From an uncultured Acidimicrobiia bacterium (GTDB taxonomy: Bacteria; Actinomycetota; Acidimicrobiia; Spongiisociales; ZC4RG35): DNA of 64,000 bases. Positions 23,497 through 64,000 of this stretch are shown here, one piece after another; the first letter of the stretch is position 1, and every line of letters begins with the position of its first letter. A program made the position numbers and the translations under genes. Location: positions 318,626 through 382,625 of the forward strand of contig CAVYYV010000005.1 in assembly GCA_963772815.1 (NCBI GenBank). The letters are read 5' to 3'. The notes beneath the pieces are model-generated. The model was given only the letters and a program-made list of their open reading frames with translations. It had not been told where the DNA came from and ran no database searches.

Positions 23497-23600
23497 GTTT
23501 GCGCTCGCTCCTTCCGCCTGGTCTGCGATCCTAACCAACACGGGGCGGCCGTGACGGCCGCCCCGTGTCAGTTCTCATCGGCTCATCGACTGAGTGGCAC

Positions 23601-45385: not shown

Positions 45386-45462
45386 GGACAACATCTACCA
45401 AAGCCAGAGGGGCCCCCGGTTCGCCGGGGGCCCGTTTTGGCGTCTCGCCAGCGTTCGCTGAT

Positions 45463-46821
45463 CTAACCGGCGCCCAGCCCCCCGCCCAATCCGGCCAGAT
45501 GCACCATCCAGGTCACGCTGGCCGGGATCAGGGCCACCAGGATCAGCCCCACACCCTGCAAGGCCATGAAGGGGAAGGCTCCGAGGTGTATGTCCTTGGT
45601 CTTGATCTCGGGTGGAGCCACCGACTGGAGGTAGAAGAGCGAGAACCCGACCGGGGGCGAAATGAAGGCGATGTTGAGGTTGATCGCCATCATCACCGTG
45701 AACCAGACCAGGTCCACCCCCAGCGCCTGGGCGGCGGGCACGAACAGGGGCATGACGATGAAGGAGATCTCGAGGAACTCGAGGTTGATGCCGAGGAGGA
45801 AGACGATCACGTTGGCGGCGACGATGAATCCCCACTTACCTCCGGGAAGGTTGAGCAGCCAACCCGTGATCAGGTCCTGGCCGCCGAGACGATCGAAGAG
45901 GAGGGCGAAGAAAGTGGAGCAAAACAGGATCTGGAGCACCAGGGCAGTGATCTGGGTGGTGGCGACCGCGGCTTCCCTGATCATCTTCCAGGAGAAGTTG
46001 CGGTAGCCGATCGCAAGGAGGACCGCACCCAGGGCACCGACCGATCCCGCCTCGGAGGCGGTGGCCAGACCGAAGAAGATCGAGCCGAGGACCGCGAAGA
46101 TCAGCGCCAGTGATGGCACGATGGAGAGGAAGGCCTCCTTGGCCAGCGCCGCTCCCGCCAGGGTGCGCTCTTCCTTGGGGATGGGTGGGGCAGTACCGGG
46201 CCGCAGGTAGGCGATGATGACCGCATAGGCGGCGTAGAGGATCGCCAGCATGATCCCGGGAATGAGGGCACCGGCGAAGAGCTGACCCACCGAGACGGGC
46301 AAGAAGGTGGCCAGCACGATCAGCACCAGACTGGGAGGAATGAGCTGGGCCAGGGTGCCTGAGGCGATGATTACGCCGGTGGCCAACTTGTGGTCGTAGT
46401 TGTAGCGCACCATCACCGGCAAGGAGAGGATGCCCATGACGATGACAGTCGCTGCCACGACACCGGTCGCGGCGGCGAGCAGGGTGCCGACGAACACCAC
46501 CGCGATGGCCATGCCGCCCTTGATCGGGCCCATCAACATGCCAATCGAGGTGAGCAATCGCTCGGCCAGGCCCGATTTCTCGAATACCGCCCCCATGAAG
46601 ACGAAGAAGGGGATGGCGAGGAAAGTGAAGTTGGCCATCGAGCTGGCAAACCACTTGTTGAACAGGCCATTCAAGATCGCCGGGTCGAGAGCGCCTGTGA
46701 AATAGCCGAGGACGAAGAACACGAAGGCAGTTCCGGCGAACGAGAAGGCGACCGGGTAGCCCAGCATGATCACCACCATGAAGACGAGGAACATGATGAT
46801 CGCCAGCCACTCAGCACTCAC
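45463..46821 (-). CDS. dctM: TRAP transporter large permease (DctM)
   Basis: 452 aa, ~12 TM helices, typical DctM composition. Confidence 0.85.
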
Positions 46822-47500: not shown

Positions 47501-48067
47501 CTACTCGTTGACCGCCGCCCCTCCCCATCGTCTCACCAGGTCGACGGCGGCCGGGGACAGGTCAATGTCGCTTACGTGGATTATCCGCTCACCGCGAACC
47601 ACCTGCACCACGGTCTCGGCGAACTGTTCGGAGGGAGTATCGAACCACACGTCTCCCTGATGCCAATCCTGATCGGGCGGAAAGCCCTGGATAGCCATGA
47701 ACCTGGCCCCGATCTCATCCACGACCGGGCAGGAGGCTTCGAGATGATGGCCGAACTCGTGCATGAGCGATTCGGGGAAACGGCGGGGCGAGGTGGGTAC
47801 CAGGACACGGATGACGTGATCGGAGAAGCTGTAGGAGGCGTCGCCGTCGGGAAGCTCGCTCACCGCCACCAGGTCGACGTCACCCAGGCAGTCGCGCTGG
47901 TTGGGGAAGGCGGCCACGAAGTCGGCCCAGGAATCCTCGATGATCGTCATCGCCTGCGGAGGAAACTTCTGGCTGAGACGCAGCACCGGTCCTCCCCCAC
48001 TATTGGCCCACAGAACCCCCCCAATCACCCCCACCACCACTACCGCCAAGACCACCGACCTGCGCAC
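47501..48067 (-). CDS. putative secreted zinc metallopeptidase (HExxH)
   Basis: 188 aa. Signal/anchor MRRSVVLAVVVVGVIGGVLWA and the motif HEFGHH. Confidence 0.5.
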   Translation of the reverse strand: MRRSVVLAVVVVGVIGGVLWANSGGGPVLRLSQKFPPQAMTIIEDSWADFVAAFPNQRDCLGDVDLVAVSELPDGDASYSFSDHVIRVLVPTSPRRFPESLMHEFGHHLEASCPVVDEIGARFMAIQGFPPDQDWHQGDVWFDTPSEQFAETVVQVVRGERIIHVSDIDLSPAAVDLVRRWGGAAVNE

Positions 48068-48113
48068 CTATGTGTTTTTATCAGCAAAACGGGACCCAGG
48101 AGGGTCCGTTTTG
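48064..48113. repeat. Palindromic terminator-like repeat element, copy A (GTTTTTATCAGCAAAACGGGACCCAGGAGGGTCCGTTTTGCAGGGGAGAA)
   Basis: Perfect AAAACGGGACCC / GGGTCCCGTTTT inverted repeat with conserved flanks TTTATCAGC and CAGGGGAGAA. Same element at ~54.0, 59.7 and 60.3 kb. Confidence 0.75.
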
Positions 48114-48125
48114 CAGGGGAGAATC

Positions 48126-49568
48126 TCAGACGGGGCGATTCTCACGAGACTTGTGGATCTGATGGATCTGTCGGGCCTGGTGAGACCCGTCCGACGCTGG
48201 GCCGGTTGCGGGCGGGGCCGGAAGGGCCACCTCCACCACCAGCCCCCCCTCCTGAGCGTCTTGCAGGGTGACGGTACCGTCGTGGGCATCGGCGATCGCC
48301 TTGACGATCGAAAGCCCGAGGCCGCTACCGGCCGATGAGTTGTCGCCCCGCCAGAACCTATCCAGCGCCCGGCGCTTCTCCTCGTCCGAGAGGCCAGGGC
48401 CGGAGTCTGCAACAGACAGGATCAGGTTTTCCTCACGCCGGTCCAGCGAAACCGCGATGTTGCCCCCGGCGGGGGTGGCCGCGATGGCGTTGTCGATGAG
48501 GTTGTCGAGGATCTGGTCGATCGCGCCCGGTATGAGGAGTACCGGTGCGATCGGCTCGTGCTGAACGGATCGCAATGTCACCGAGGTCTCAGCCGCGACA
48601 GCGGACCAGATCTCCACTCGGTCCTCGACCACCTCCTCCACCGGCACGGCCTCCCGATCGGGCTGCAGGTCGGTCCGCGCCAGCCGCAGAAGCTGACCGA
48701 CGAGGGCGCCGAGCCGTTCGGTCTCTTCGATGGCTGCGTTGATCTCAGCCTCCTGTCCGGGCCGGACATCGGCCTCGGCCAGGTTCTCGAGGCGAAGGCG
48801 CAGCGCGGTCAGTGGTGTCCGAAGCTGGTGAGAGGCGTCGGCGACGAAGGCGCGCTGAGCTCGGAGCATCTCATCCAGGCGACGCGCCATCCCGTTCAGG
48901 GTCTCGGCCAGCTCTACCACCTCTGGCGGGGCGTCCCTCGGGGCCGGCTTGGCGCCGAGGTTTCCCGACGCAAACGAGTGCGCCGCATCCTCCAACTCGC
49001 GAAGCGGCCGCGAAACCGAGCGAGCCAGCGTGGATCCCACGGCCGCTACCGCCACCAGGATGACCCCGGCCACGGCCGCCAGGCCAAACCAGAATTGGTG
49101 AATCCGACTCTCCACCTGGGTGATGGGGAGGGTCAGCCGGAGTGCACCGTGGACCACGCCTCCCGAGGCCACCGGCACCGCCACGTAGAGGAAGTCGATC
49201 CCCAGCGTGTCGGAATGACGGGTGCCCTGGGACCTCACGCCCGTGAGGGCTGTGGCGATCTCGGGACGGGTGGAGAAGTCGCGGTCCACCGGTGCGTCCG
49301 TGTCGAGCAGCGCTATGCCGTTGGTGTCCACCAGGACGACCCTGGCTCCGGTGCGAGCCCGATACTCCTCGGCGGCGGTGGGGCGTAGAGGCGCTCCCGA
49401 GTCCAGAACGTCCTCGTAGGTAGTGGCCAGCACCGCTGCGTCCGATGCAACGGCATTTGTGAACCGGTCCCGTTCCCGGGTAGCGAAGAAGAAGGCGAGA
49501 GGTATCTCCAGCACCAGGATGATGAACAGTGCCAGGGTGAGATAACTGATCAGGATGCGGCGGTTCAC
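48126..49568 (-). CDS. sensor histidine kinase (HAMP-HisKA-HATPase)
   Basis: 480 aa. N-terminal TM, periplasmic segment, second TM. H-box ADASHQLRTPLTAL. N, G1, G2 boxes (DNLIDNAIAAT, ADSGPGL, GSGLGLSIV). Confidence 0.88.
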   Translation of the reverse strand: MNRRILISYLTLALFIILVLEIPLAFFFATRERDRFTNAVASDAAVLATTYEDVLDSGAPLRPTAAEEYRARTGARVVLVDTNGIALLDTDAPVDRDFSTRPEIATALTGVRSQGTRHSDTLGIDFLYVAVPVASGGVVHGALRLTLPITQVESRIHQFWFGLAAVAGVILVAVAAVGSTLARSVSRPLRELEDAAHSFASGNLGAKPAPRDAPPEVVELAETLNGMARRLDEMLRAQRAFVADASHQLRTPLTALRLRLENLAEADVRPGQEAEINAAIEETERLGALVGQLLRLARTDLQPDREAVPVEEVVEDRVEIWSAVAAETSVTLRSVQHEPIAPVLLIPGAIDQILDNLIDNAIAATPAGGNIAVSLDRREENLILSVADSGPGLSDEEKRRALDRFWRGDNSSAGSGLGLSIVKAIADAHDGTVTLQDAQEGGLVVEVALPAPPATGPASDGSHQARQIHQIHKSRENRPV

Positions 49569-50231
49569 TGCGCGGCGGGCTCCGCCGCCACCCTGAAGCC
49601 GACACCGCGGATCGTTTCGATGACTTCAGCGCCCAGCTTGCGCCGCAACGAGGCCACGTGAACGTCGAGGGTCTTAGTCGATCCCCACCAGTGCTCGTCC
49701 CAGACGGATTCGAGGATTCGCTCCCTGGAAAAGACCGCTCCCGGGTCGCTCGCCAGGAAGACGAGCAAGTCGTATTCCTTGGGAGTGAGCGAAACGGGCT
49801 CGCCATCCACGGTCACCTCCCGCGTGCGTCGGTCGACCGTCACGCGCCCCAGGACCTGGGTCGTGGTCGTGACGGGGGCTGCCGACGCGCGGCGCAGCAC
49901 CGCCCTTATCCGGGCGACAAGCTCGCGATACCCGAATGGCTTCACCACATAGTCATCCGCCCCGATCTCGAGCAGTGTGACACGGTCGATCTCGTCGCCC
50001 GCGCGCCGTGACCACGATGATCGGCACCTCGGACCTCTCCCGCAGCCGCCGGGCCACGGTTTGGCCGTCGAGATCGGGAAGACCTAGGTCCAGGAGTACC
50101 AGATCACCCGGGTCCGCCTCGAGGGCAGCCGCACCCGTTTCGGCCAGAGCAACCGTGAAACCCTCCCGCTCCAGGCCACGACACAGAGGGTCCGAGATCG
50201 TGTGATCGTCCTCGACCACCAGCAATCGCAT
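49565..50231 (-). pseudogene. OmpR-family response regulator split by a frameshift between receiver (49953..50231) and winged-helix (49565..49948) domains
   Basis: Receiver MRLLVVEDDHTISDPLCRGLEREGFTVALAETG...DLVLLDLGLPDLDG...VPIIVVTARG, then out of frame. The other frame reads ...DEIDRVTLLEIGADDYVVKPFGYRELVARIRAVLRR...EYDLLVFLASDPGAVFSRERILESVWD...TLDVHVASLRRKLG. One extra G in the GCGCGGGCG run (~50011-50021) explains it. Confidence 0.7.
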
Positions 50232-50358
50232 GCAGATAGCTTGGCATCCAGGGTCGGAGTAGTCGTATTTCTTAACCGATTCTTGGTTTTCGCTTGACTC
50301 CCTCTTTCCAACCCTTCTCGTAGGTTGTACACCGCCAAGCCACTTCGAAAGGGTTCCA

Positions 50359-50940
50359 ATGAAGCACCGGACAGGACTAATCACCGCCGCTTCGGTAGTG
50401 GGTGTGCTGGCGGCAGGCTCGGTCGCAATAGGTGCCAACCTAGGCATCCTCAACGCTTCCGGCAGCGATGCCGTGGGCTCTCTGAGCGTTGCCACAACCC
50501 AGCCGAGCGCCCAGGTGGAACAGGTGGTTGATGACGCTCAGGCCACCTCGACCAGCAGCACACAAACCACCCAGGCCCAGCCCAACCAGTCCGACTATCA
50601 GGTGGAAGACGCCGGGACGGTCAGCGTCAGCTGGGACCAGACCGGGATCATCGACGCCACTACCCAGCCCGCGGCGGGCTGGTCGTCCACGATCGACGCC
50701 CTTGCCCCCGACGGGGTGGCGATCAGCTTCACGGACGGCAGCACCACTTACACCTTCACCGCCCAACCCGATGAACAGGGCCAACTCACGGTCGACGTCG
50801 TCCAGCCCATTGTGGAGATCGTTACCCAGCCGGCGACCAATTCCTCGGGCAGCGTTTCGCCTCCCGCCAACACCAGCTCCAACCAGGGCGAGCACGAGGA
50901 CGACTATGGGGAGCACGAGGGTCGCAATGACGACGACTGA
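50359..50940 (+). CDS. hypothetical secreted protein
   Basis: 193 aa. Signal peptide MKHRTGLITAASVVGVLAAGSVA. Thr/Gln-rich. Acidic C-terminus. Confidence 0.55.
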   Translation: MKHRTGLITAASVVGVLAAGSVAIGANLGILNASGSDAVGSLSVATTQPSAQVEQVVDDAQATSTSSTQTTQAQPNQSDYQVEDAGTVSVSWDQTGIIDATTQPAAGWSSTIDALAPDGVAISFTDGSTTYTFTAQPDEQGQLTVDVVQPIVEIVTQPATNSSGSVSPPANTSSNQGEHEDDYGEHEGRNDDD

Positions 50941-51421
50941 GAGAAAACCCCTCACTCCCGAGGAGCGGGCGGCCCGACTGGAGGCGCTCCGTCAACGGCG
51001 TCAACCCCGGTCCCAGACCGAGTCCAAATCCACCTTGGTCGATGCCGCACCCTCTCCGGAGCGCAAGACCAGAAAGCGCAAAGCCCATCCCGCCCGCAAC
51101 TCCCGAGCCGCTGCCACGGGCCTGGCGGGAGGCCTGACTGTCGGATTGATCGCAGGCTTGGCCGCTACCGGCGCCGCCTCCTCTCCCGTTGCCCAGGTGG
51201 TTGAGGCGCCGGTAGCGGCCACGACGAACCAGCCTGCCGCAACACCACCTCCGACGACGCAGGCTCCCCAGACCACAGCCGCCCAGCCCTCGACGACGGC
51301 CCCCTCCACCACCCAGGGCCCGGTGGCTCTCACGGCCCGTCGTCAGGTCCAGACTCGAGTGGTCCAGGTGCAGCCCGCCACTCGTCCAGCGGCAGTGAGC
51401 CGGACAAATGGCAGTCGTTGA
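50927..51421 (+). CDS. hypothetical membrane-anchored Pro/Thr-rich protein
   Basis: In-frame part of ORF 50489..51421 starting MTTTERKPLTPEERAARLEAL.... One TM (GLAGGLTVGLIAGLAATGAA) followed by a Pro/Thr/Ala-rich region. Confidence 0.45.
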   Translation: MTTTERKPLTPEERAARLEALRQRRQPRSQTESKSTLVDAAPSPERKTRKRKAHPARNSRAAATGLAGGLTVGLIAGLAATGAASSPVAQVVEAPVAATTNQPAATPPPTTQAPQTTAAQPSTTAPSTTQGPVALTARRQVQTRVVQVQPATRPAAVSRTNGSR

Positions 51422-52310
51422 GGCACGCCACCGGGCCATGGCATCGGCGGTGCACGTAGCGGTGGTGGGCGGTTCGGCCGACCTGGCCGATCACGCCCTG
51501 ACCCGGCTCGACTATCTCGAGCAGAAATGGAGCAGGTTCCTCACGGGCAGCGACATCGACCGGCTCAACCATGCCGACGGCGCCTGGACGGAGGTCGACC
51601 CATCGACGGTCACTCTCCTCACCGCCATGCGCCGAAGCTGGTCCATGACTCAGGGTCTGGTTGACCCAACCATCCTGCCCTCCCTCGTGGCGGCCGGATA
51701 CGCGGCGAGCATCGACGATCCGACCCGGATTACCCACCTGCCCGAAGGGCGGTCTTCCGGTGCCGGCCTGGCCGATCTGGAGATCGACGAGGAGGGCCGG
51801 GCCCGCATCGGTGGCAGCGTCGGCCTGGATCCGGGTTGCATCGGAAAAGGCCTGGCTGCGGACATCGTCTCTGAGGAGCTGATCCTGGCCGGAGCCGATG
51901 CCGCCCTCGTCAACGTCGGCGGCGACCTGAGCATGTCGGGCATGGCCGACCCCGCTTGGCATGTGGAGGTCGAGCACCCGATCAACCCCGAGCTCACCTC
52001 TCTGACTCTGTCGCTTGTGGCGGGCGGCGTCGCCACCTCCAGCACCCGCACACGCACCTGGGAGCAGGACAGAGTGAGGCGTCACCACACCATCGATCCG
52101 AGGACCGGCCTGCCCGCCACAACCGATGTGGCGTCTGTGACCACCATCTCCGACATGGCTGCCGATGCCGAAGCATGGGCAACGGCGGCGCTGATTGTCG
52201 GCGCCGGTCCCGCCTATGAGATGCTCGTGGCTGCCGGCGTGGACGGGATCATCGGCACCGCATCCGGAGCGGTTCTCCAGACCCCCGGCCTGATCGCGAA
52301 GGCATCATGA
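51408..52310 (+). CDS. apbE: FAD:protein FMN transferase (ApbE family)
   Basis: 300 aa with the ApbE hallmark LDPGCIGKGLAADIV and C-terminal conserved region. Confidence 0.8.
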   Translation: MAVVEARHRAMASAVHVAVVGGSADLADHALTRLDYLEQKWSRFLTGSDIDRLNHADGAWTEVDPSTVTLLTAMRRSWSMTQGLVDPTILPSLVAAGYAASIDDPTRITHLPEGRSSGAGLADLEIDEEGRARIGGSVGLDPGCIGKGLAADIVSEELILAGADAALVNVGGDLSMSGMADPAWHVEVEHPINPELTSLTLSLVAGGVATSSTRTRTWEQDRVRRHHTIDPRTGLPATTDVASVTTISDMAADAEAWATAALIVGAGPAYEMLVAAGVDGIIGTASGAVLQTPGLIAKAS

Positions 52311-52891
52311 ACGGCCAGTTCTGGTGGTTCCTGGCCCGCTCGAGCGGCATAACGGCCCTGGTGATGGTGGCGGCCAGCGTGCTTTGGGGCCTTTTCCTCT
52401 CGTCACGACTTCTGCAGAGCAAACGTCGGCCTGCCTGGCTGCTCGACCTGCACCGCTGGCTGGGCGGGCTCTCTGTTCTGACGGTGGGCGCCCACATCCT
52501 GGCGATCGCCGCCGATTCGTATGTCCCGTTCTCACCCGCCGCCCTATTCGTACCAGGTGTTGCCAGCTGGCATCCGGTGGCCGTGGCTTGGGGAATCGTG
52601 GCCTTCTGGCTGTTGGCCGCAGTCCAGATCACATCGTTGATGATGCGTCGGCTGCCTCGCAAGTGGTGGCGCCGGATCCATTTCACGTCCTATGTTGTGT
52701 TCTGGGCAGCGGCGATCCACGGGGCGATGGCGGGCAGCGACTCGGGCCTGCCTGGTTATCGAATCGTCGCCGTGAGCCTGATCCTCATCGTCTCGTTCGC
52801 CACCGTGTATCGGGCAATCACCACGAAAAGTGCCAACCACTCACGAAAGCCCGCAACGGTGCGCAGCATCACGGAGGGTCGGGCAGCCTGA
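52307..52891 (+). CDS. ferric-reductase-like transmembrane domain protein (MsrQ/YedZ-like heme b membrane protein)
   Basis: 194 aa, 5-6 TM helices with conserved His residues (HRWLGGLSVLTVGAHIL, IHFTSYVVFWAAAIHGA). Translationally coupled to apbE. Confidence 0.65.
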   Translation: MNGQFWWFLARSSGITALVMVAASVLWGLFLSSRLLQSKRRPAWLLDLHRWLGGLSVLTVGAHILAIAADSYVPFSPAALFVPGVASWHPVAVAWGIVAFWLLAAVQITSLMMRRLPRKWWRRIHFTSYVVFWAAAIHGAMAGSDSGLPGYRIVAVSLILIVSFATVYRAITTKSANHSRKPATVRSITEGRAA

Positions 52892-53935
52892 TCAGGGCCG
52901 GCCGGCCAGATAGCGATCCTCGGCGAAGTAGTCGAGCATCGGTCCGAAGTACTCCTGGTCGAGACCATCGAGTGTGGAGAGGCCGGCTTCGACTCGCGCC
53001 CTGTTGGCCAGCCACTCCAAAGACTCGGCCACCGTGGAGGCGTAGTCGCCGACCGGCGCATATCCCAAGCGGGTCGCTGCGGTCGTGTCCAGGACGATCG
53101 GGAAGGCGGTCTCCCAGGGGTGGCGACCCAGGGCGGGGTGGGTGCCGTCATCGAGGAGGATCTCCTCCCGGTCGTGGCGGAGGAGGCGGGCGATGATGCG
53201 CGATATCTCGAGAGCGCTGGGCGCGTCGGGGTCGGCGCAGTTCAGCACCCGCCGGCCTGGCCGGCTCGCGACCACCTCGATGAGAGCAGCCAGGTTGGAG
53301 GCGGCCGTCGTGTGGTCAACGCCCGAGCCACGAGCGGCCAGGAACACAGCCTGGCGCTTGTCGAGCGCCCGTTTTACGAACACCCACTCCCGGGGCCTGG
53401 AACCACCAGATCCGTGCACCTTCGATGCCCGGATCACCGTTACAGGTCCGGCACTGTCCAACAAGACCTGCTCGGCGGCCACTTTGTTGGCTCCGTATCC
53501 GTCCGGAGTCGTGTAATCACCGTCGCCCGGGGCCAGGGTGGGCTGTGTCTCTCTGATCCGATCTGGGAAGTGCGGAGCGGCCGCCGAGTTGACGTGGTTC
53601 CCCGCCTCGTCCACATAGACAGCCTTGCTCGAGATCATCACACAGGAGCCGAACCCGGGCAGCAGGGGCAGCAGGGGCAGCAGTCTACGGGCGTCTTCGG
53701 CCGTGTAGCACACGCAGTCGACCAGCAGATCGCCTCCGTCGGCAGCTATCTCCCCGAGGCGGTCGGGCTGGCGGGCGTCGGCGGCCGCGAAGATCACCCC
53801 AGCCGCGGCCAGGTCGGACGGAAAGTGCGAGGGGTTCCGACCGACTACCCGGACGCTCCATTCCGACTGCACCAGGCGCGTGGCCGTGGCGCGACCGATC
53901 GTCCCGGTGCCACCCAGGATCAGGGCCGTGGGCAT
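52892..53935 (-). CDS. NAD-dependent epimerase/dehydratase family protein (SDR)
   Basis: 347 aa. N-terminal Rossmann motif LILGGTGTIGRA and a YxxxK-type region (YGANKVAAE). Contains a short LLPLLPLLP coding repeat (GCAGCAGGG x2.5 at ~53655-53680). Confidence 0.75.
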   Translation of the reverse strand: MPTALILGGTGTIGRATATRLVQSEWSVRVVGRNPSHFPSDLAAAGVIFAAADARQPDRLGEIAADGGDLLVDCVCYTAEDARRLLPLLPLLPGFGSCVMISSKAVYVDEAGNHVNSAAAPHFPDRIRETQPTLAPGDGDYTTPDGYGANKVAAEQVLLDSAGPVTVIRASKVHGSGGSRPREWVFVKRALDKRQAVFLAARGSGVDHTTAASNLAALIEVVASRPGRRVLNCADPDAPSALEISRIIARLLRHDREEILLDDGTHPALGRHPWETAFPIVLDTTAATRLGYAPVGDYASTVAESLEWLANRARVEAGLSTLDGLDQEYFGPMLDYFAEDRYLAGRP

Positions 53936-53992
53936 GGAGGGAGGCTACCTGGAGGCGTTGCGAACCCGGGCCTTTGGGGGTGGAGTCGCATT

Positions 53993-54044
53993 CTCCCCTG
54001 CAAAACGGACCCTCCAGGGTCCCGTTTTGCTGATAAAAACGCGA
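53993..54044. repeat. Palindromic terminator-like repeat element, copy B (inverted orientation)
   Basis: TTCTCCCCTGCAAAACGGACCCTCCAGGGTCCCGTTTTGCTGATAAAAACGCG, the reverse complement of the copy-A consensus. Lies between the epimerase and clpB genes. Confidence 0.75.
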
Positions 54045-54058
54045 GAGGGGGGGCCGGG

Positions 54059-56626
<2,568 letters not shown>

Positions 56627-56646
56627 TTGATCACTCCATTAGGAAA

Positions 56647-56667
56647 TCTGAGTCCAATCATATCAAG
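56647..56667. promoter_or_regulatory. Candidate HspR operator (HAIR-like) TCTGAGT-CCAATCA-TATCAAG upstream of clpB
   Basis: On the clpB strand it reads CTTGATA-TGATTGG-ACTCAGA versus the HAIR consensus CTTGAGT-N7-ACTCAAG (11/14 matches, correct 7-bp spacer). ~25 bp upstream of the clpB start. Confidence 0.45.
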
Positions 56668-56734
56668 GTCGTAGAGCGGGCGTGTATTCCGAGATTTCCC
56701 CGGATTCGCCCAGCGGGCTTCGGGCGTGGCCGGC

Positions 56735-57115
56735 TCAGAGGATCAGGGTGAGCCGGCGGTTGAGAGCATCGAGGACGGCCCGGGCCGTGGCCAGAACGGT
56801 GTCCCCTCGGCGGATGAGTGCCGAGCCGACGTACACGTCGGGACGCCCCGGCTCGGCCACCTGCACTAGGGCGATCGTTACACCGTCTATGGTGGAGGTG
56901 CCGACCGCGCTCAGTTCGAAACGGGCCGATCCCGTCACCGACTCCAGGGCCCGAAGGGTGGCCTCTCCCACCACCCGGGGACGAAGAGCACGATCGGCGG
57001 CGCCCTCCGCCCGGCCGTGATGCTCCTTGCCCTCCGCCTCGAGCACCACCGAAACGGCCACGTGATCTCCGAGCTCCACGTCGACGGAGCGCAACACCGG
57101 TCTGTCGAAGTCCAT
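56735..57115 (-). CDS. hypothetical protein
   Basis: C-terminal 126 aa of ORF 56735..57250 (from MDFDRPVLRSVDVELGD...) has high GC3 and protein-like composition (…ATLRALESVTGSARFELSAVGTSTIDGVTIALVQV…ARAVLDALNRRL). The upstream extension conflicts with the mscL remnant on the opposite strand. Confidence 0.45.
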   Translation of the reverse strand: MDFDRPVLRSVDVELGDHVAVSVVLEAEGKEHHGRAEGAADRALRPRVVGEATLRALESVTGSARFELSAVGTSTIDGVTIALVQVAEPGRPDVYVGSALIRRGDTVLATARAVLDALNRRLTLIL

Positions 57116-57187
57116 CGCCCTGACGATAGCCAGCAGATACCGGTGGTAGCCTCGCCAGCACTCGATCGACCCGAAAGGGAAAGAGCG

Positions 57188-57417
57188 ATGATCAAGGAAC
57201 TCAAGGAGTTCATCAGGCCACCGGCCTTCCCGCCGGATCAGTGGGAGCATTCATCGGCGCATTGATAGAGTTCATCGTCATCGCCTGGGTCCTGTTTCTG
57301 GTGGTCAGGGCCTACACCCGCACGCGCCCGGCACCCGAAGAAGCTCCTGAGCCCGGCCCCTCCGAAGAGGTGGTTCTCCTGACCGAGATCCGCGACAGCC
57401 TGTGCCAGGGCTGAAGA
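57188..57417 (+). pseudogene. mscL: mscL remnant: MscL N-terminus (MIKELKEFIR) joined out of frame to MscL TM2 plus C-terminal helix, with TM1 and the periplasmic loop missing
   Basis: Frame 2 from ATG ~57188 reads MIKELKEFIRPPAFPPDQWEHSSAH-stop. Frame 1 from ~57241 reads (V)GAFIGALIEFIVIAWVLFLVVRAYTRTRPAPEEAPEPGPSEEVVLLTEIRDSLCQG-stop, matching the MscL TM2 and C-terminus (compare EEVLLTEIRDLL in E. coli/M. tuberculosis MscL). No RGNVVDLAVGVIIG segment in any frame. Confidence 0.6.
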
Positions 57418-57551
57418 TCGGGCACCACGAAGACCTGGGTTCGGCACCGGAATCGGGCCGCGTCTCGACCTCGATCCAGCGGTTGACTACCTGTTGGCGC
57501 CTGCTACCGTTCTATGCATGATAGCTGGCAGCCTAAGGTAGGCGACAGCCG

Positions 57552-57905
57552 ATGGTGGACAGTGCCGTGCGACCAGACCGAGGTACACAGCTCCTCAAAG
57601 GCGTGCTCGACATGTGCTTGCTGTCCATCATCGGAGAGGAGCCGTCATATGGATACGAGATGGTGCGAAAACTCCAGGACCGGGGGCTCAGCCTGGTCAG
57701 CGAGGGGTCGATCTACCCCCTGTTGTCGCGTCTGCAGAAGGGCGGTCTCCTCGACGGGTTCCTGGTGCAGTCGTCAGAGGGCCCGGCCCGCAAGTACTAC
57801 CGGATCACCGATTCGGGCACGGGTGCTCTGGAAAAGTGGACCCAGGAGTGGAATCGGTTTCGCGACGGCGTCGAGGACGTGCTGAGGGGTGGGGACGATG
57901 ACTGA
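57552..57905 (+). CDS. PadR family transcriptional regulator
   Basis: 117 aa with the PadR winged-helix signature (LLKGVLDMCLLSIIGEEPSYGYEMVRKL...GSIYPLLSRLQKGGLL...KYYRITDSG). Confidence 0.88.
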   Translation: MVDSAVRPDRGTQLLKGVLDMCLLSIIGEEPSYGYEMVRKLQDRGLSLVSEGSIYPLLSRLQKGGLLDGFLVQSSEGPARKYYRITDSGTGALEKWTQEWNRFRDGVEDVLRGGDDD

Positions 57906-58686
57906 CATCGACGCCCTGGTCGAGGATTGTGCCCGCTACTGGGCCCAGACCGGTGTGCCCCGCGGGGCGGTGCAGGAAATGACCCTCGAACTGACCAACC
58001 ATTTATGCGACGCCGAGAATGAGGGCAGGCAGGCCACGGCCGTCATCGGGCCGGACGTGGCCGAGTTCGCCGAGGCGTGGGCGTTCGAACGTCGACGGGG
58101 CCGCCCCCGGGCCAGCTGGGAAGATGTCATGAGCGGTCGAACCGAGAGGGACAAGCGGAAGCGACGCGAGCTCGTCGCATACGGAGCCGGAGCCGCGGCC
58201 CTAGTCGCGGCCGTGGCGGTGATCGGGAAAGGAGCCAACGAAATGGACAACGAGATTTGGCGCTGGCTGTGGACTGGGCTGGCGGTGGTGATGGCGATCG
58301 GCGAGATGTTCACAGCCGGGTTCTTCCTCCTGCCGTTTTCCATTGGAGCTGCTTGCGCGGCCGTCCTCGCCTGGATCGGAGTGGGGGTCCTGGCCCAATG
58401 GCTGGTCTTCTTCGGCGTGTCGGGGCTCGCCCTGGCCTATCTGCGCCGCTACATCACCCGCCAGGACGAAGGCGAACAGCCCCGGGTGGGCGCCAACCGC
58501 TGGATCGGCTCCACGGGAGTGGTGCTGGAAGCGATCGACCCGGACACGGCCAGCGGCATGGTGCGGGTCGAGAACGAGGAGTGGAGAGCAGCGTCCGAGC
58601 ACGGGAGCATCATCCCCGCCGGATCGCGAATCCATGTCATCAGAGTGCGCGGAGCCCGACTGGTGGTCGAGCCGTATGAGAACTGA
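57889..58686 (+). CDS. NfeD-like membrane protein with an N-terminal soluble helical extension
   Basis: 265 aa. ~110-aa soluble N-terminus, two to three TM helices, then a C-terminal OB-fold-like segment (WIGSTGVVLEAIDPDTASGMVRVENEEWRAASEH...IHVIRVRGARLVVEP) typical of NfeD partners of SPFH proteins. Overlaps the padR stop. Confidence 0.6.
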   Translation: MGTMTDIDALVEDCARYWAQTGVPRGAVQEMTLELTNHLCDAENEGRQATAVIGPDVAEFAEAWAFERRRGRPRASWEDVMSGRTERDKRKRRELVAYGAGAAALVAAVAVIGKGANEMDNEIWRWLWTGLAVVMAIGEMFTAGFFLLPFSIGAACAAVLAWIGVGVLAQWLVFFGVSGLALAYLRRYITRQDEGEQPRVGANRWIGSTGVVLEAIDPDTASGMVRVENEEWRAASEHGSIIPAGSRIHVIRVRGARLVVEPYEN

Positions 58687-58737
58687 ATTCTTCCCACAAC
58701 TTCATACATTTACGTCGAGAGAGAAAGGTAGGAGGCA

Positions 58738-59709
58738 ATGCCAGCAGTAGTCATCCTGTTCGCGGTCCTGGCGCTGGCGATCATCCTGATCGCAGCCGCA
58801 GGCTTCAGGGTTGTGCGACCCTTCGAGAAGGGCCTGATCGAGTTCCTGGGCCGTTACGAGAAGACGGTCGATTCTGGGCTGCGATGGGTCATGCCCTTCG
58901 TCAAGAGGATCATCAAGGTCGACATGCGTGAGCAGGTGGTCGACGTTCCGCCCCAGGAGGTCATCACCAAGGACAACGTGGTCGTAACCGTGGACGCGGT
59001 CATCTACTACGAGGCCACAGACCCGGTGAAGCTGAAGTACAACGTGGGCCAGTTCATCCTGGCCGTCACGAAGCTGGCCCAGACCAACCTCCGTAACGTG
59101 GTGGGCGACCTCGACCTCGACGCGGCCCTCACTTCGCGGGAGGTCATCAACGCCAAGCTGCGCCAGATCCTCGACGATGCCACCGATAAGTGGGGCGTCC
59201 GTGTGGTTCGGGTCGAGATCCAACGCATCGAGCCGCCCGCCGACGTCACCGACGCCATGCACCGCCAGATGAAGGCGGAGCGGGATCGGCGGGCATTGGT
59301 CACCGAGGCCGAGGGCGCCAAGCGGGCCGCCATCCTGCGTGCCGAGGGCGTCAAGGAGTCCCAGGTGCTGGAGGCGGATGGTCAGGCCGAGGCCATCAAG
59401 CGAGTGGCCGATGCCGAGCGCTACCAGAAGGAAACAGTGGCCGAGGGCGAGGGCCGGGCCATCGAGCGGGTCTACTCCGCCATCCACACCGGGGATCCCA
59501 CCCCCGACCTGATCGCCATCCGTTACCTGGAGGCCCTCCAGGGCGTGGCCAACGGGAAGGCGACCAAGATCTTCCTGCCCCTCGACACCTCAGGAGTTCT
59601 TGGCTCGGTGGCCGCCATCAGCGAGCTCTTCAAGGAAGACGGCCAACCCCCCACCACCACCGACGGCGGCTCCGCGTCCAGCGGCTCGGGTCCCTCCTAC
59701 GGGGGCTGA
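58738..59709 (+). CDS. SPFH/band-7 (stomatin/prohibitin-like) family protein
   Basis: 323 aa. N-terminal TM anchor, SPFH core ([32 protein letters not shown]...[16 protein letters not shown]), coiled-coil Ala/Glu-rich tail. Confidence 0.88.
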
Positions 59710-59711
59710 TC

Positions 59712-59768
59712 CGCGTTTTTATCAGCAAAACGGCCCCTCAGAGGGGCCGTTTTGCAGGGGAGAACGCG
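59712..59768. repeat. Palindromic terminator-like repeat element, copy C
   Basis: CGCGTTTTTATCAGCAAAACGGCCCCTCAGAGGGGCCGTTTTGCAGGGGAGAACGCG. Stem AAAACGGCCCC/GGGGCCGTTTT (compensatory change relative to copy A). Terminal CGCG...CGCG. Directly after the SPFH stop. Confidence 0.75.
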
Positions 59769-59789
59769 TCCAGCTCCCCGCCGACCCGG

Positions 59790-60242
59790 TCAGCGCGAGC
59801 TCCCCTCGGTCAGCATCTCCACCGTCTGGCCAATTCGCCGCGCCCGCGTCTCGTCCCGCTTGGCGTCGGTGATCCACTCCACATACTCCCGCTGGTGGGT
59901 GTAGGAGAGCCCATCGAAGTGCTTCCCCGCCTCAGGGGCGGCAGCCAAGGCCTGGGCCAGGTCCTGGGGAACCTCTACTTCACGTGGGTCGAGATCCAGT
60001 TCAACCACGACATCGACCACCTCGCCGGCCTCGACCGCGGCCGCCTCTCGATTGGCGCGGGATAGGGGCAGGAAAAAGCCCCCGCGATAGGGAGCGATGG
60101 TGCTGCGATAGGTGTGGCCTCCCACGGTTACCTTGACTGGCGGACGCTTTCCCGACCCGAGTTGCTCCACCACTTCTTCGGGCACCCGGATGCCTGTGGC
60201 GGTCTTGCCGCTCAACTCGATCTCCGCCTCGAAACGCTCCAT
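59790..60242 (-). CDS. DUF1905 / YdeI-OmpD-associated family protein
   Basis: 150 aa. N-terminal beta-barrel-like DUF1905 region (IRVPEEVVEQLGSGKRPPVKVTVGGHTYRSTIAPYRGGFFLPL) and C-terminal YdeI-like region (HFDGLSYTHQREYVEWITDAKRDETRARRI). Confidence 0.65.
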   Translation of the reverse strand: MERFEAEIELSGKTATGIRVPEEVVEQLGSGKRPPVKVTVGGHTYRSTIAPYRGGFFLPLSRANREAAAVEAGEVVDVVVELDLDPREVEVPQDLAQALAAAPEAGKHFDGLSYTHQREYVEWITDAKRDETRARRIGQTVEMLTEGSSR

Positions 60243-60260
60243 GCTCGGATCAAGCCTATC

Positions 60261-60317
60261 CGCGTTCTCCCCTACAAGACGGTCCCTGCAGGGTCCCGTT
60301 TTGCTGATAAAGACGCG
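60261..60317. repeat. Palindromic terminator-like repeat element, copy D (inverted, slightly degenerate stem)
   Basis: CGCGTTCTCCCCTACAAGACGGTCCCTGCAGGGTCCCGTTTTGCTGATAAAGACGCG. Located between the ydeI-like gene and the lipoprotein gene. Confidence 0.7.
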
Positions 60318-60320
60318 GAA

Positions 60321-60870
60321 TCAACCCGCTACGCGGGTCATCCCGGCCAGGGTCTGTTGGACCTCTTGGGGGGAGACGGGGGGATAGAAGACCATGGTGT
60401 AGAGGTCGCAGCGGGCGCCGGGGTCGTTGTACCAGGTGACCACCCAGCGGCCGTCCGGGTAGGGGCCGGCCACTGCCCGAGTGCCGGCGACATCCACCTC
60501 TCCCTTCTCGCTTGGGTATTGACTGGGGGGCAGAGTGCCGCGGATCAGGGCAATGGCGGGGTCGCCACCGTGGCCGACCCAGAGCGTCGTGTTGGTCCCG
60601 CCGATTGACGTGAATTCGTCCGGTTCAGCCAGGACGTCCCCGTTGGCGGGGGCCACCTCCGTGGGAAGCGAGCCCAGCTGATAAGGAGCCGGCGGACAGG
60701 GAGGCGGAGGCTCGGTGGTGACGGCGGCAGACGTGGAGGCGGCGACGGTCGAGGGAGGGGTCGACGAAGGCGCCGCCGACGAGGTCGCGGTGGTCGAGGC
60801 TGAGCAAGCTCCAACCAACCCGGTGATGAGGAGCAGGCCGAGAAGGGCGAGAGAAACCCGGGACCGCACG
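60321..60870 (-). CDS. hypothetical lipoprotein
   Basis: ORF 60321..61073. Plausible start around VRSRVSLALLGLLLITGLVGAC (lipobox LVGAC). Ser/Thr/Pro-rich linker, then a globular C-terminus. Confidence 0.5.
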
Positions 60871-60978
60871 AGGCGCGATGGTACCCCCGGCCGCGATTTT
60901 GTCGGCGGAGCCCGGGAAAGGCGCCCACCCCGGGGCAGAAGTCGGGGCCGCCGGTTACCGTGACTGAGAGCCTGAGGA

Positions 60979-62133
60979 GTGATCGAACTGCCCGATAAGA
61001 AAGAGATGGCTCGCAGGAGGGTCGCCGAAGCCGCCGCGGACCTGCGCCGGATAAGCCATTGGATGTATGACAACCCTGAGCTCGCCTACCAGGAGTTCAA
61101 GAGCTCGGCTCGCCTGGTCGAATTCCTCCGCGAAGCGAGCTTCGAGATCGAGTACCCGGCTTACGGCCTGGACACCGCCTTCGCCGCCCGCCTCGGCACC
61201 AGCGGCCCCCACGTGGTGGTGTGTGCCGAGTACGACGCCCTGCCTACGATCGGCCAAGCCTGCGGGCACAACATCATCGCCACCGCCGCCCTCGGCGCCG
61301 GCTACGCCCTCGCCCCGCTGGTGGACGAGTTGGGAATCCGTCTCACGGTCCTGGGGACTCCGGCGGAAGAGAACTTCGGAGGCAAGGTGGACCTCATCGA
61401 GGCGGGCGCCTTCGACGACGTGCAAGCAGCAATGATGATCCATCCGTCTACGGCTGACGTGGTCGACCCCAACGTCATCGCCGTCGCCCATCTCGACGTT
61501 CACTACCGGGGCAAGGCGGCCCACGCCTCTGCCTATCCCCAGCAGGGAATCAACGCACTGGATGCCGCGGTCCAGGCCTATGTCAGCGTGTCCACACTCC
61601 GCCAGCACATCTACCCCACCGACAAGGTCCACGGCATCATCGCCCAGGGCGGCGATGCTCCCAACGTGATTCCCGACTACACACGCTCCTCCTGGTACGT
61701 ACGCGCTCAAGATCGGGACAGGCTCGACGTGCTACTCCCCAAGGTCACCGCCTGCTTCGAGGGTGCAGCCACCGCCACAGGCTGTGCACTCGAGGTCGAG
61801 AGTGTCGGCCATGTCTACGACGAGCTGACCTCCAACCCAACCATGGTGGAGCTGTTCGCCGCCAACTCTGCCCGGCTCAACCGACCGATGCTGCGCGGCG
61901 ACGAGCTGCCTCCCTCCCAGACCGGTTCGACCGACATGGGCAACGTCTCCAAGGTCACGCCGACCATCCATCCCATGTTGGGCATCAACTCCGCTCCGGC
62001 CGTCAACCACCAGAAGGAGTTCGCCGCCCACACCATCACGCCCGACGGGGACCGGGCCATCACAGATGGGGCATTGGCCATGGCCTGGACCGTCATCGAC
62101 CTGGCTGATCAGGATCGCTGGAACGAGCTCTGA
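60979..62133 (+). CDS. M20 family amidohydrolase / peptidase (aminoacylase-like)
   Basis: 384 aa with metal-binding motifs of the M20D family (VVVCAEYDALPTIGQACGHN, GTPAEE, HPSTAD...). Confidence 0.8.
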   Translation: MIELPDKKEMARRRVAEAAADLRRISHWMYDNPELAYQEFKSSARLVEFLREASFEIEYPAYGLDTAFAARLGTSGPHVVVCAEYDALPTIGQACGHNIIATAALGAGYALAPLVDELGIRLTVLGTPAEENFGGKVDLIEAGAFDDVQAAMMIHPSTADVVDPNVIAVAHLDVHYRGKAAHASAYPQQGINALDAAVQAYVSVSTLRQHIYPTDKVHGIIAQGGDAPNVIPDYTRSSWYVRAQDRDRLDVLLPKVTACFEGAATATGCALEVESVGHVYDELTSNPTMVELFAANSARLNRPMLRGDELPPSQTGSTDMGNVSKVTPTIHPMLGINSAPAVNHQKEFAAHTITPDGDRAITDGALAMAWTVIDLADQDRWNEL

Positions 62134-62183
62134 CCCGGAGTCTCGAACAGATGACTGCCTGAAAATCGCGTTCTCGGCCACAA

Positions 62184-63329
62184 TTGGGGTCTGTGCACAT
62201 AGGGTCGAAGCTGAGAATGGCAGTCGTGACGGCCGGAGGCGTCCTCCTCGGGCTGTCCATCTTCGTTCTCACTGGCCCCGCCAGCGGGTCCTTGGCCGAT
62301 GCCACGGCCACGACCCTTGCCACCACCCCGACATCCCCCACCACCGCGACATCCCCCACCACCGCGACATCCCCCACCACCGCGACATCCCCCACCACCA
62401 CCGCGACATCACCCACCACCACCGCGACTTCCCCGACCGCCACGACTACAACCCGGCCCCCGCGGGGGACGCTTGTGATCGACGCCGTTGGCGACGTCAC
62501 CACCAGCACCAGCTACATCCCCGCTCTGACCGAGAAGGGCCTCGGCTACGCCTGGACCGGGGTCAAGGGCCTTTTCACACGCGACGACCTCACCCTGGTC
62601 AACCTGGAGTGCACTCCGTCCCGCCTGGGCGAGCCCCTGGACAAGGAATTCGTGTTCCGTTGTGACCTCGACTCGCTCCCGGTGATGAAGGCTGCCGGCG
62701 TCGACGTCGCCAACATGGCCAACAATCACAGCCAGGACTATGGCAAGAAGGCTCTCCGCGATGGTTGGAGCAACGTGGCCGAGGCCGGACTGTCTCCGGT
62801 TGGCGTGGGCGCCGACGCCGCCCAGGCTGCCACCCCGGCCCTGTTCGACATCGATGGATGGAGAGTGGCGGTATTGGGCTTCGGGGGGGTAGTTCCCAGC
62901 CCCAGCTGGATCGCCACCGCCGACCGGGCCGGTATGGCCGACGGTGACGACGGTGATTCCATGGCGGCGGCGGTCCGCGCCGCCGCCGACCAGGCGGATC
63001 TGGTCGTAGTGATGATCCACTGGGGAGTGGAGCTGCAGACCGAGCCCACCGAGGGTGACCGAATACTCGCTAAGAAGATGATCGACGCCGGCGCCGACAT
63101 GATCTTCGGTCATCACTCGCATCGGCTGCAGCCCCTCCAGGAAGTGGAAGGGGTCCCGGTGGCCTGGAGCCTCGGCAACTTCGTTTGGCCCAACTTCTCC
63201 GTGGCGGGGTCCACTACTGCCGTCGCCCGGGTCATCGTTTCCCCCGACGGGACCACTCAGTCCTGCCTCTTGCCGGTGTTCATCTCCGCCCCCGGCCACC
63301 CCGAACTGACAGGAGATGCCGACTGTTGA
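62184..63329 (+). CDS. CapA-family protein with signal anchor and (TSPTTA)n linker
   Basis: 381 aa. N-terminal TM (VVTAGGVLLGLSIFVLTG), Thr/Pro repeat linker, CapA-like core (LVIDAVGDVTTSTSY, LTLVNLECTPS, VVVMIHWGVELQTEPTEGDR, IFGHHSHRLQPLQE, WSLGNFVWP). Confidence 0.75.
   Translation: MGSVHIGSKLRMAVVTAGGVLLGLSIFVLTGPASGSLADATATTLATTPTSPTTATSPTTATSPTTATSPTTTATSPTTTATSPTATTTTRPPRGTLVIDAVGDVTTSTSYIPALTEKGLGYAWTGVKGLFTRDDLTLVNLECTPSRLGEPLDKEFVFRCDLDSLPVMKAAGVDVANMANNHSQDYGKKALRDGWSNVAEAGLSPVGVGADAAQAATPALFDIDGWRVAVLGFGGVVPSPSWIATADRAGMADGDDGDSMAAAVRAAADQADLVVVMIHWGVELQTEPTEGDRILAKKMIDAGADMIFGHHSHRLQPLQEVEGVPVAWSLGNFVWPNFSVAGSTTAVARVIVSPDGTTQSCLLPVFISAPGHPELTGDADC
62331..62444 (+). repeat. Tandem 18/21-bp coding repeat ACATCCCCCACCACCGCG x ~6 encoding (TSPTTA)n
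   Basis: Read directly: four near-identical 18-bp units followed by two 21-bp and one degenerate unit, inside the CapA paralog. Confidence 0.8.
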
Positions 63330-63357
63330 GGCCGGTGGACGCCATCATTGGTTCGCC

Positions 63358-64000
63358 ATGACCCATCGCGCCCCCAATCCCCGAGCACCGAACCGGACCT
63401 CCCGGTTCCGGGTCGTGGTGCTGGTTCTGGGGCTGGGTGTGGTGCTTGTGGGCGCCGCCCGCCTGCTCTCGCCCCCACCCGATGGCAACGGCCCATCAGG
63501 AGTCCAGGCTGCCGCGGCGGATACCACCCGGCCTGCGGGGACATCGCTCACCACCACGCCATCGTCGACCCTGGCCGCACCCGTCACCACAACGACCATC
63601 GCCGCCACCACCACGACCACCCTCCCGTCACGACCCGCCAATGTGGTGCCGGCCTGGACGGTGGGCCGACCCTGGGGACAGGTGATCGGGTTGACCATGT
63701 TCAGGGGCAACCCGACCCGGACCTGGTACGGGGAAGGACCGGTTCCCTCGGATCCCACCAACCTGTGGCACTTCCCCGACTCCGGAGGCATGTGCGGCGA
63801 CTCGAGCGTGGGCGGCGTGTCCAAGCTGTGGTGCGGCTCGGGATGGACCGGACAGCCCGTGGTTTGGGAGAGGCCGGACGGGACGACCGAGGTCATCTTC
63901 GGCGCCTACGACAAGGCGGTTCACTTCCTCAACGCGGCCACGGGCCTCCCCACCCGCCCCTCGTTTCCCACCGGCGACATCATCAAGGGCTCGGTGACGC
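63358..64000 (+). CDS. hypothetical membrane-anchored protein, possibly beta-propeller (PQQ-like repeat), partial (continues beyond window end)
   Basis: Not in ORF track (no stop before the window end). My translation from ATG ~63358 reads MTHRAPNPRAPNRTSRFRVVVLVLGLGVVLVGAARLL...Thr-rich linker...TWYGEGPVPSDPTNLWHFPDSGG...GSGWTGQPVVWERPDGTTEVIFGAYDKAVHFLNAATG. The last segment resembles PQQ/WD-like beta-propeller repeats. Confidence 0.4.
   Translation, partial: MTHRAPNPRAPNRTSRFRVVVLVLGLGVVLVGAARLLSPPPDGNGPSGVQAAAADTTRPAGTSLTTTPSSTLAAPVTTTTIAATTTTTLPSRPANVVPAWTVGRPWGQVIGLTMFRGNPTRTWYGEGPVPSDPTNLWHFPDSGGMCGDSSVGGVSKLWCGSGWTGQPVVWERPDGTTEVIFGAYDKAVHFLNAATGLPTRPSFPTGDIIKGSVT

Follow-up and report, generated by a model that had tools for sequence, protein, structure and literature searches.

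A small family of homologous hairpins next to stop codons in uncultured Acidimicrobiia

The 64-kb window analysed here (the whole stretch of 64,000 nucleotides, from contig CAVYYV010000005.1) belongs to an uncultured Acidimicrobiia population, has a G+C content of ~65%, and carries, within 12 kb, several intergenic copies of a palindromic element of ~57 nt. The question raised by this locus is whether these copies are transcription terminators that resemble one another in composition, a mobile repeat that is spreading through the genome, or a set of related sequences with a role at the ends of genes. The element is a real, previously uncatalogued homologous family that is small and restricted to one lineage, and it most likely marks the 3' ends of messenger RNAs (mRNAs).

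Membership, structure and strand asymmetry of the family

Exactly four copies (A to D; Table 1) are present in the window according to a covariance model run with filters off (65-81 bits), and two covariance models agree on the same four copies (65-86 bits, each on one strand). These are the four intergenic sites singled out in the original prediction, which placed copies C and D correctly, while copies A (set too far left, at 48064-48113) and B needed the corrected spans given in Table 1. The forward strand of a copy is defined as the strand reading CGCG-TTTTTATCAGC-AAAA-CGG...CCG-TTTT-GYAGGGGAGAA-CGCG; the model gives 65-81 bits on the forward strand versus 17-40 bits on the reverse strand. 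The left-flank 16-mer TTTATCAGCAAAACGG occurs four times in the window versus 0.09 times expected by chance, and the right flank CCGTTTTGCAGGGGAGAA (with at most 2 mismatches) occurs four times versus 0.06 expected. The flanks are conserved, as had been proposed, and their likeness goes well past generic terminator composition.

The element recurs outside the window: once related genomes are searched with the model, as suggested along with the original prediction, seven Acidimicrobiia populations yield about 26 copies altogether (W, M, S, T, U, V, and J, where W is the genome of the window, M is the sister metagenome-assembled genome (MAG) MFD05684.bin.1.262 from the same sample, and S is an Acidimicrobiaceae MAG). 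An exact-pattern scan of 185,579 species-representative genomes returned 48 matches, seven of them with conserved flanks (six in M and one in S). The other 41 were rejected as unrelated A-tract/U-tract terminators from many phyla, with unconserved flanks and scores of at most 29 bits over the central hairpin only, compared with 48-81 bits for the family, which supports the earlier suggestion of a homologous family rather than independently evolved terminators. Among these species representatives, family members are confined to Acidimicrobiia, and a scan of JGI metagenomes gave a single contig with real members (L055, two copies). Copies beyond the pattern scan came from model searches of those loci and of syntenic loci reached through homologues of the SPFH, histidine-kinase, and dimethylglycine-dehydrogenase genes, raising the count in M from 6 by exact pattern to about 10 detectable. 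Model searches found no element in the related genomes L059, L061, L062, L063, and L068, and no copies were present in the viral contigs, plasmids, or phages searched. The whole window has no Rfam match at gathering score, and under permissive settings the sole Rfam matches, to microRNA-precursor hairpins, are attributable to chance.

When 25 copies are aligned, which requires almost no gaps, the element pairs along its full length as a single hairpin of 27 nested pairs. Canonical pairing occupies 82.5% of the cells, compared with 41-55% when partner columns are slid by 1-3 positions; both sides change in 14 of the 27 pairs, and none of 500 shuffles attains the observed covariation score. The selection on structure that had been proposed from copy C alone, whose compensatory stem (GGCCCCT/AGGGGCC) is real, is thus seen in compensatory changes at 14 pairs. 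The central stem is wholly different among genomes (e.g., GGGACCC, GGTGCGC, CGTCGTG, or GGGGCGG), and further compensatory changes affect the A/U tract (A-U to G-C) and the outer flank pairs 16/46 (G-C to C-G) and 14/48 (C-G to G-C). Length is nearly constant: 17 copies, from four genomes, align without gaps and measure 47 nt from TTTATC to GAGAA, and among the 25 aligned copies just two require a length difference, of 1-2 nt at most.

The core consists of A4, a G+C-rich stem of 7-8 bp, a loop of 3-5 nt, the returning stem, and U3-4. Either side of this core has about 11 more conserved bases, which lengthen the helix on just one of the two strands. Three nearly invariant U·G pairs lie in the outer helix, with U-A or C-G as the only variants; since these become C·A mismatches on the other strand, only the forward strand folds end to end. 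Canonical pairing is correspondingly 82.5% on the forward and 71.3% on the reverse strand, with the forward value higher in 23 of the 25 copies. In predicted folds, the forward RNA forms the full rod (-32.9 kcal/mol for copy B and -39.8 kcal/mol for copy C; z = -6 to -7, with -7.0 for C) and the reverse RNA forms the core hairpin only; a simple terminator scan reports A, B, and D, with all three matches on the reverse strand. The description of the core as a perfect bidirectional hairpin was therefore too strong on both counts: the core is perfect in C only, with a one-base asymmetry in A and B (CGGGACCC opposite GGGTCCG) and three mismatches in D, and the element as a whole is asymmetric. The CGCG brackets stand as the outermost base pairs of the hairpin, and they are absent from copy A and several other copies. 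An alternative pairing of the stop-codon context GCTGAT with left-flank ATCAGC was dropped, since genomes with the ATGACC flank variant lose the complementarity. The element supplies several of the most stable 3'-end hairpins of the window.

Position at gene ends and history of the sites

When orthologous sites are counted once, the family occupies 16 loci, of which 15 can be assessed (L030b is uncertain). At 12 of these 15, the forward strand has the sense of a gene that ends in a stop codon 2-8 nt ahead of the T-run or within the element; this number includes ClpB in the genome of the window, where the stop is 19 nt before the T-run of copy B. Genes with the element behind their stop include those for SPFH, a 171-aa protein, a nitroreductase, an HD-associated protein, dimethylglycine dehydrogenase, a CO-dehydrogenase flavoprotein, mscL, and ClpB. 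Stops inside the element are provided by TGA within the variant flank TTATGACC (ClpB in L066), by the TAG of GTAGG (an open reading frame (ORF) in L064), and by TAA in the right flank (L065), and the C-termini of the flanking proteins are conserved through the last residue (e.g., the conserved hypothetical protein upstream of copy D is 63% identical to its L060 counterpart through the final residue). Because both DNA strands carry forward copies within 12 kb of the window, orientation tracks gene direction and not replication direction. The prediction that all window copies sit in gene-end gaps holds: B, C, and D directly follow the stops of ClpB, the SPFH protein, and a conserved hypothetical gene, and copy A occupies the entire 58-nt gap (48068-48125) from the histidine-kinase stop to the next start codon. 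On its other side, copy C has the convergent DUF1905 gene, whose stop is 21 nt away, and copy D, the most degenerate of the four, ends 18 nt ahead of the ATG of that same gene.

These sites are old. All four are occupied in the sister genome M, over 16 kb of syntenic sequence that is 81-83% identical, and more distant genomes carry the element at B, C, and D as well; the copies, being common to W and a sister species of ~82% DNA identity, are not recent insertions, and there is no evidence for the currently propagating REP/MITE-like element (a repetitive extragenic palindromic sequence or miniature inverted-repeat transposable element) that had been suggested. In the gap behind ClpB, the element is an indel-free island (41/47 identical) amid indel-rich flanks that barely align. 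No target-site duplication was found, the sequences beyond the element sharing no direct repeat, and the CGCG brackets are merely outer hairpin pairs. A search for an empty site at the dimethylglycine-dehydrogenase locus yielded no close W orthologue in the database, and the nearest genome (L068) was too diverged for insertion borders to be recognised.

Copies from one genome nevertheless resemble each other more than distant orthologues do. Mean element identity is 81% within and 67% between genomes, and in distant genomes orthologues are 56-70% identical compared with 82-89% for paralogues of the same genome. Between W and M, similarity is highest for the orthologous pairs of C and of D (91% over 57 nt), copy B is 89% identical to its paralogues and 88% to its own orthologue in M, and copies A and B of W match at 46/47 positions compared with 37/47 between the A copies of W and M and 40/47 between A and B of M. 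Paralogues that are more alike than distant orthologues, together with the 46/47 identity of A and B, indicate concerted evolution, either via gene conversion or via repeated replacement from a master copy; gene conversion is the homogenising process that we infer.

Copies are often paired and point towards each other, with spacers of 59 nt (L030), 492 nt, 615 nt, about 1 kb, and 5.9 kb, and the genes enclosed by such pairs vary. The slot between the SPFH and 171-aa genes holds DUF1905 in W and M, two unrelated ORFs in L060, and is empty with a single element in L064; behind ClpB, an ECF sigma factor and a partner gene lie between two copies in L066, and L065 has one copy. Both members of a pair usually adjoin the stop of a conserved outer gene (the exception is L029b). 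Most simply, every convergent gene would have a 3' hairpin of its own, with accessory genes settling between, though the repeats may also play a part in cassette exchange. In L061, variable genes lie between convergent conserved genes without any element. An AbiEi_4/DUF559 (endonuclease-like) gene at L029 5208-6185 and L046 7700-8000 has been conserved in two genomes; an inverted element pair encloses it in S, and the L046 locus ends before a second copy is visible.

Possible roles and the alternatives

With a confidence only slightly above even, we read the element as a family of homologous RNA hairpins, restricted to one lineage, that act in cis at the 3' ends of genes. This reading fits the RNA-type covariation, the strand asymmetry, the orientation with gene direction, the attachment to stop codons, and the conservation within fast-evolving spacers, and a role as weak-U-tract intrinsic terminators or as mRNA stabilisers would be in keeping with it. 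Forward transcription of the element as the tail of the upstream gene would produce a rod of ~25 bp, the core of which (the 7-8-bp G+C-rich stem between A4 and U3-4) could act as a weak-U-tract intrinsic terminator usable from either side, and the full rod may shield the mRNA 3' end from exonucleases. Since the stop is 2-8 nt from the foot of the hairpin at most loci, a ribosome terminating there would mask the outer 5' arm, in which case the terminator core alone would be left free to fold. The copies would have descended from one ancestral sequence and stayed at the same gene ends through speciation, with their likeness within each genome presumably maintained by gene conversion.

The closest analogue, as judged from its description, is the Tuberculosis Rho-independent terminator motif (TRIT) of Mycobacterium, a sequence-conserved palindromic terminator motif hugging stop codons, which is found in 147 copies per genome, accounts for most of the stable 3' structures, and was suggested from its excess conservation to have a binding factor (Gardner et al. 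2011, PMC3152330). Both are hairpins conserved in sequence and structure, palindromic and largely bidirectional, restricted to one actinobacterial lineage, placed at a very narrow distance from the stop and often overlapping the coding end, and conserved beyond the needs of folding. The covariation and invariant flanks of the element, its narrow stop distance, and its single lineage are all TRIT-like features, which amounts to analogy and not homology. The two differ in copy number (147 per genome in TRIT versus about 10 detectable for the element) and in host (Mycobacterium versus Acidimicrobiia), and the element, unlike TRIT, has a clear strand asymmetry and orientation bias.

Several observations weigh against this reading. 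The U-tract comprises just 3-4 adjacent U in most copies, the bases that follow are not U-rich, and L065 has AAGG/CCUU in place of AAAA/UUUU and hence no U-tract. Canonical bidirectional intrinsic terminators share with the element the A-tract/U-tract core and the location behind stop codons and between convergent genes; the element copies, however, are mutually homologous and not merely similar in composition, and intrinsic termination requires at least 3 adjacent U and the usual U-tract is 7-9 nt long, and mycobacterial RNA polymerase does not terminate without a U-tract and uses suboptimal ones with NusG (PMC3993855). Given this requirement, the lack of a U-tract in L065 would leave only a stabilising or processing role in some genomes, and this loss and the long rod point also, or instead, to 3'-end stabilisation or processing. 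Copies A, B, and D separate co-directional genes by 7-51 nt, so that efficient termination would need a promoter or read-through. Three loci break the placement rule (copy A with its orthologue, L055b, and L046/L029b). Copy A is reversed relative to its flanking genes, 2 nt past the histidine-kinase TGA and 7 nt ahead of the GTG of the next gene, and the reversed arrangement of copy A, its orthologue in M, and L055b places the end of GCTGATAAAAA 6-7 nt ahead of a start codon; L046/L029b sits between divergent genes. In addition, strongly conserved non-complementary flank bases (e.g., the A·G mismatch at pair 12/50) are unexplained by folding alone.

Some of these features might be accounted for if the conserved asymmetric flanks (UUUUUAUCAGC ... 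GYAGGGGAGAA) were read on the folded single strand by a trans-acting factor, which we consider rather unlikely; the factor could be a domesticated Y1-type transposase or a double-stranded-RNA-binding termination/processing protein that co-evolves with all copies. If true, such a factor would explain the divergence of orthologues alongside uniform paralogues, the conserved length and mismatches, and the position of reversed copies 6-7 nt before starts. A similarly unlikely explanation is that the element is REP-like mobile DNA, i.e., non-autonomous palindromes copied or re-seeded by a single-copy Y1 transposase of the REP-associated tyrosine transposase (RAYT) type, with the 3'-end placement reflecting tolerated insertion. 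The uniformity within and divergence between genomes at common sites matches REP/RAYT behaviour, the strand-specific hairpin with G·T pairs suits recognition of single-stranded DNA, a G(T/C)AG motif stands beside the core stem in most copies, inverted pairs are frequent (the L030 pair, 59 nt apart, resembles a REPIN), some loci are occupied in a single genome (e.g., the mscL copy in L064), and three copies lie away from 3' ends. REP, BIME, and REPIN sequences (PMC2817692, PMC3733652, PMC3116915) are likewise short extragenic imperfect palindromes, mostly downstream of genes, with G·T pairs hinting at an RNA or single-strand role, inverted dimers, a genome-specific consensus, and long vertical persistence, and REP/RAYT systems are described as vertically inherited and long-lived (10.1101/2022.05.22.493013). 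The element is extragenic and palindromic too, though several copies overlap stop codons. Yet REPs measure 20-40 nt compared with the 57 nt of the element, of which only the 27-nt core hairpin (A and U tracts included) fits, and they usually exceed 100 copies per genome (PMC2817692), compared with the about 10 copies detectable in the sister genome and 4 in the 64-kb window. By definition, the stem-loop of a REP bears an unpaired tetranucleotide, GTAG or CGTC, at its 5' end, and a survey lists no GTAG or CGTC REPs for Actinobacteria (PMC3733652); the G(T/C)AG of the element is 3' of the core stem, with 3/4 bases paired with the left flank. The RAYT that was to be looked for was not seen either: no Y1 (RAYT-type) transposase or integrase occurs among the called genes of ~190 kb of annotated neighbourhoods, where the sole transposase is an IS481 in L059, a genome without the element, and no PF01797 protein was seen among the called genes of L001 and L059-L068 or the ORFs next to elements. 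The retention of the four window sites in the sister species and the orientation with gene direction on both DNA strands also argue against mobile DNA. A MITE was rejected, as the element is a single hairpin without an internal segment, its flanks share no direct repeat, and CGCG represents self-complementary outer pairs.

It is very unlikely that the element serves twice, ending one transcript and starting the next, with the GCTGATAAAAA arm of a reversed copy acting as an extended -10-like promoter for a leaderless downstream gene. In the reversed copies (48068-48125; L067 11444-11504 in the sister genome; L055 2201-2261, the L055b copy before a GNAT gene), TGATAAAAA ends 6-7 nt before GTG or ATG with no Shine-Dalgarno sequence between, a geometry that would suit a leaderless transcript beginning at the start codon. 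The actinobacterial -10 consensus is TANNNT, and the hexamer TAAAAA is without its final T; a promoter scan of 44.5-64 kb found no sigma-70-type site, the spacing is seen at just two independent loci, and most copies are forward and have no start codon at that distance. The least probable reading is a DNA-level site, in which duplex or cruciform DNA would be bound or recombined by a lineage-specific protein, perhaps at the borders of exchangeable gene slots, the hairpin being secondary. Flanks more conserved than the stem and a nearly constant length would agree with such a site, as would the inverted pairs around variable cargo (the SPFH/171-aa slot and the region behind ClpB) and the AAC...GTT triplets, which recall integron attC core sites. 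The flanks are, however, asymmetric at the DNA level and covary as RNA-type pairs that include G·U, paired copies attach to the stop of the conserved outer gene and not to the cargo, and convergent conserved genes often have variable genes between them where no special site exists, as in L061. An integron attC or CALIN identity, judged by RYYYAAC ... GTTRRRY core sites, cassette arrays of the same orientation, and a nearby intI, was rejected: GCAAAAC and GTTTTGC match the core consensus at 5/7 positions each, orientation alternates, the flanking genes are syntenic housekeeping genes, and no integrase or recombinase is called in the neighbourhoods.

Surrounding features and wider meaning

The genes next to the four copies are collected in Table 1 together with the orthologous copies, and the 188-aa protein beside copy A is 89% identical to the sister-genome protein, with the GTG start kept. 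A 468-kb ENA contig (L001; sample ERZ25039549) is 99.7% identical to the window; over window positions 49778-64000 (14.2 kb), 15 substitutions and 15 indels separate the two assemblies of this population, including an indel that splits clpB in the ENA gene calls and a substitution at base 60312, inside copy D.

Table 1. Copies of the element, their orthologues, and adjacent genes. For copies, the strand column gives the window strand that corresponds to the forward strand of the element.
Feature	Position	Strand	Remarks
Copy A	48071-48127	forward = +	conserved core 48075-48123; 72 and 65.8 bits in two models
Copy A orthologue	L067 11440-11500 (sister genome)		identical layout
Copy B	53987-54043	forward = -	82.3 bits; begins 15 nt past ClpB stop, ends 51 nt ahead of epimerase start
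Copy B orthologues behind ClpB	L013/L067; L064 5326-5386; L066 3966-4026
Copy C	59712-59768	forward = +	86.1 bits; begins 2 nt past SPFH/Band-7 TGA
Copy C orthologues	L025 4706-4766; L060 10930-10991
Copy D	60261-60317	forward = -	71.8 bits; begins 3 nt past TGA of conserved hypothetical gene
Copy D orthologues	L025 4157-4217; L064 10963-11021; L060 12102-12162
188-aa membrane-anchored protein, HEFGHH motif	47501..48067	-	GTG start 7 nt after copy A
Histidine kinase gene	48126..49568	-	Pfam HAMP/HisKA/HATPase_c; stop abuts copy A; sister orthologue 83% identity
clpB	54059..56626	-	Pfam Clp_N, AAA, AAA_2, ClpB_D2-small; upstream of copy B
SPFH/Band-7 gene	58738..59709	+	Pfam Band_7, homologues found; upstream of copy C
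DUF1905/OmdA gene	59790..60242	-	Pfam; enclosed by inverted pair C and D
Conserved hypothetical gene	60321..60656, ORF extends to 61073	-	gene call in L001; upstream of copy D

Other hairpins stand behind genes of the window and its relatives. Two were considered as possible fifth and sixth copies (23526-23580 and ~45400-45460) and rejected, with 13.5 bits (E = 0.85) for the former and no model match for the latter. The hairpin at 23526-23580 (55 nt, -42 kcal/mol) lies 20 nt past the stop of a gene at 23601-24941 (-), and the sequence on its 3' side, GTGTTGGTTAGGA, is similar to GTTTTGGTTAGGAGAA, which flanks the variant elements of L060 and L066. The hairpin at ~45400-45462 (-), GCCAAAACGGGCCCCCGG-CGAA-CCGGGGGCCCC (-35.6 kcal/mol), directly follows a DctM-like gene (45463-46821) and has the AAAACGGGCCCC start in common with the family. 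In two relatives without the element, a different palindrome (GTTTTCGCGCAyGArTTGCG...CGCAAyTCrTGCGCGAraA; L063 2708-2790 and L059 4393-4450, mutually related) directly follows the same SPFH gene, which suggests that several such hairpin families exist in the class. Repeats of other kinds are also present in the window, namely tandem 18-21-nt repeats (CCACCACCGCGACATCCCCCA-like; 62284-62454) in the 5' part of a PGA_cap (CapA-like) gene, with several indels in the other assembly, which calls the gene as two fragments, and two pairs of direct repeats unrelated to the element (4413-4462/4502-4551 and 1998-2039/2070-2111; 42-50 nt, 95-96% identical, 72-89 nt apart). The window contains no tRNA or tmRNA.

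Transcript ends are poorly understood in high-G+C Actinomycetota because canonical U-tract terminators are scarce, and a second family of stop-codon-clamped, sequence-conserved hairpins beside the mycobacterial TRIT suggests that this design recurs in the phylum. The unusual points of the family are its concerted evolution at vertically inherited sites, its strand asymmetry, and its reversed copies directly before start codons, and the data show that short dispersed repeats may evolve in concert though their genomic positions pass vertically. Should a trans-acting factor be involved, Acidimicrobiia would have their first described REP/RAYT-like or factor-dependent terminator system. Annotation of gene ends in Acidimicrobiia MAGs could benefit from the covariance model, and the family, with its length of ~57 nt, its forward/reverse asymmetry, and its natural variants with and without a U-tract, provides a compact test case that could distinguish among termination, mRNA stabilisation, and factor recruitment.

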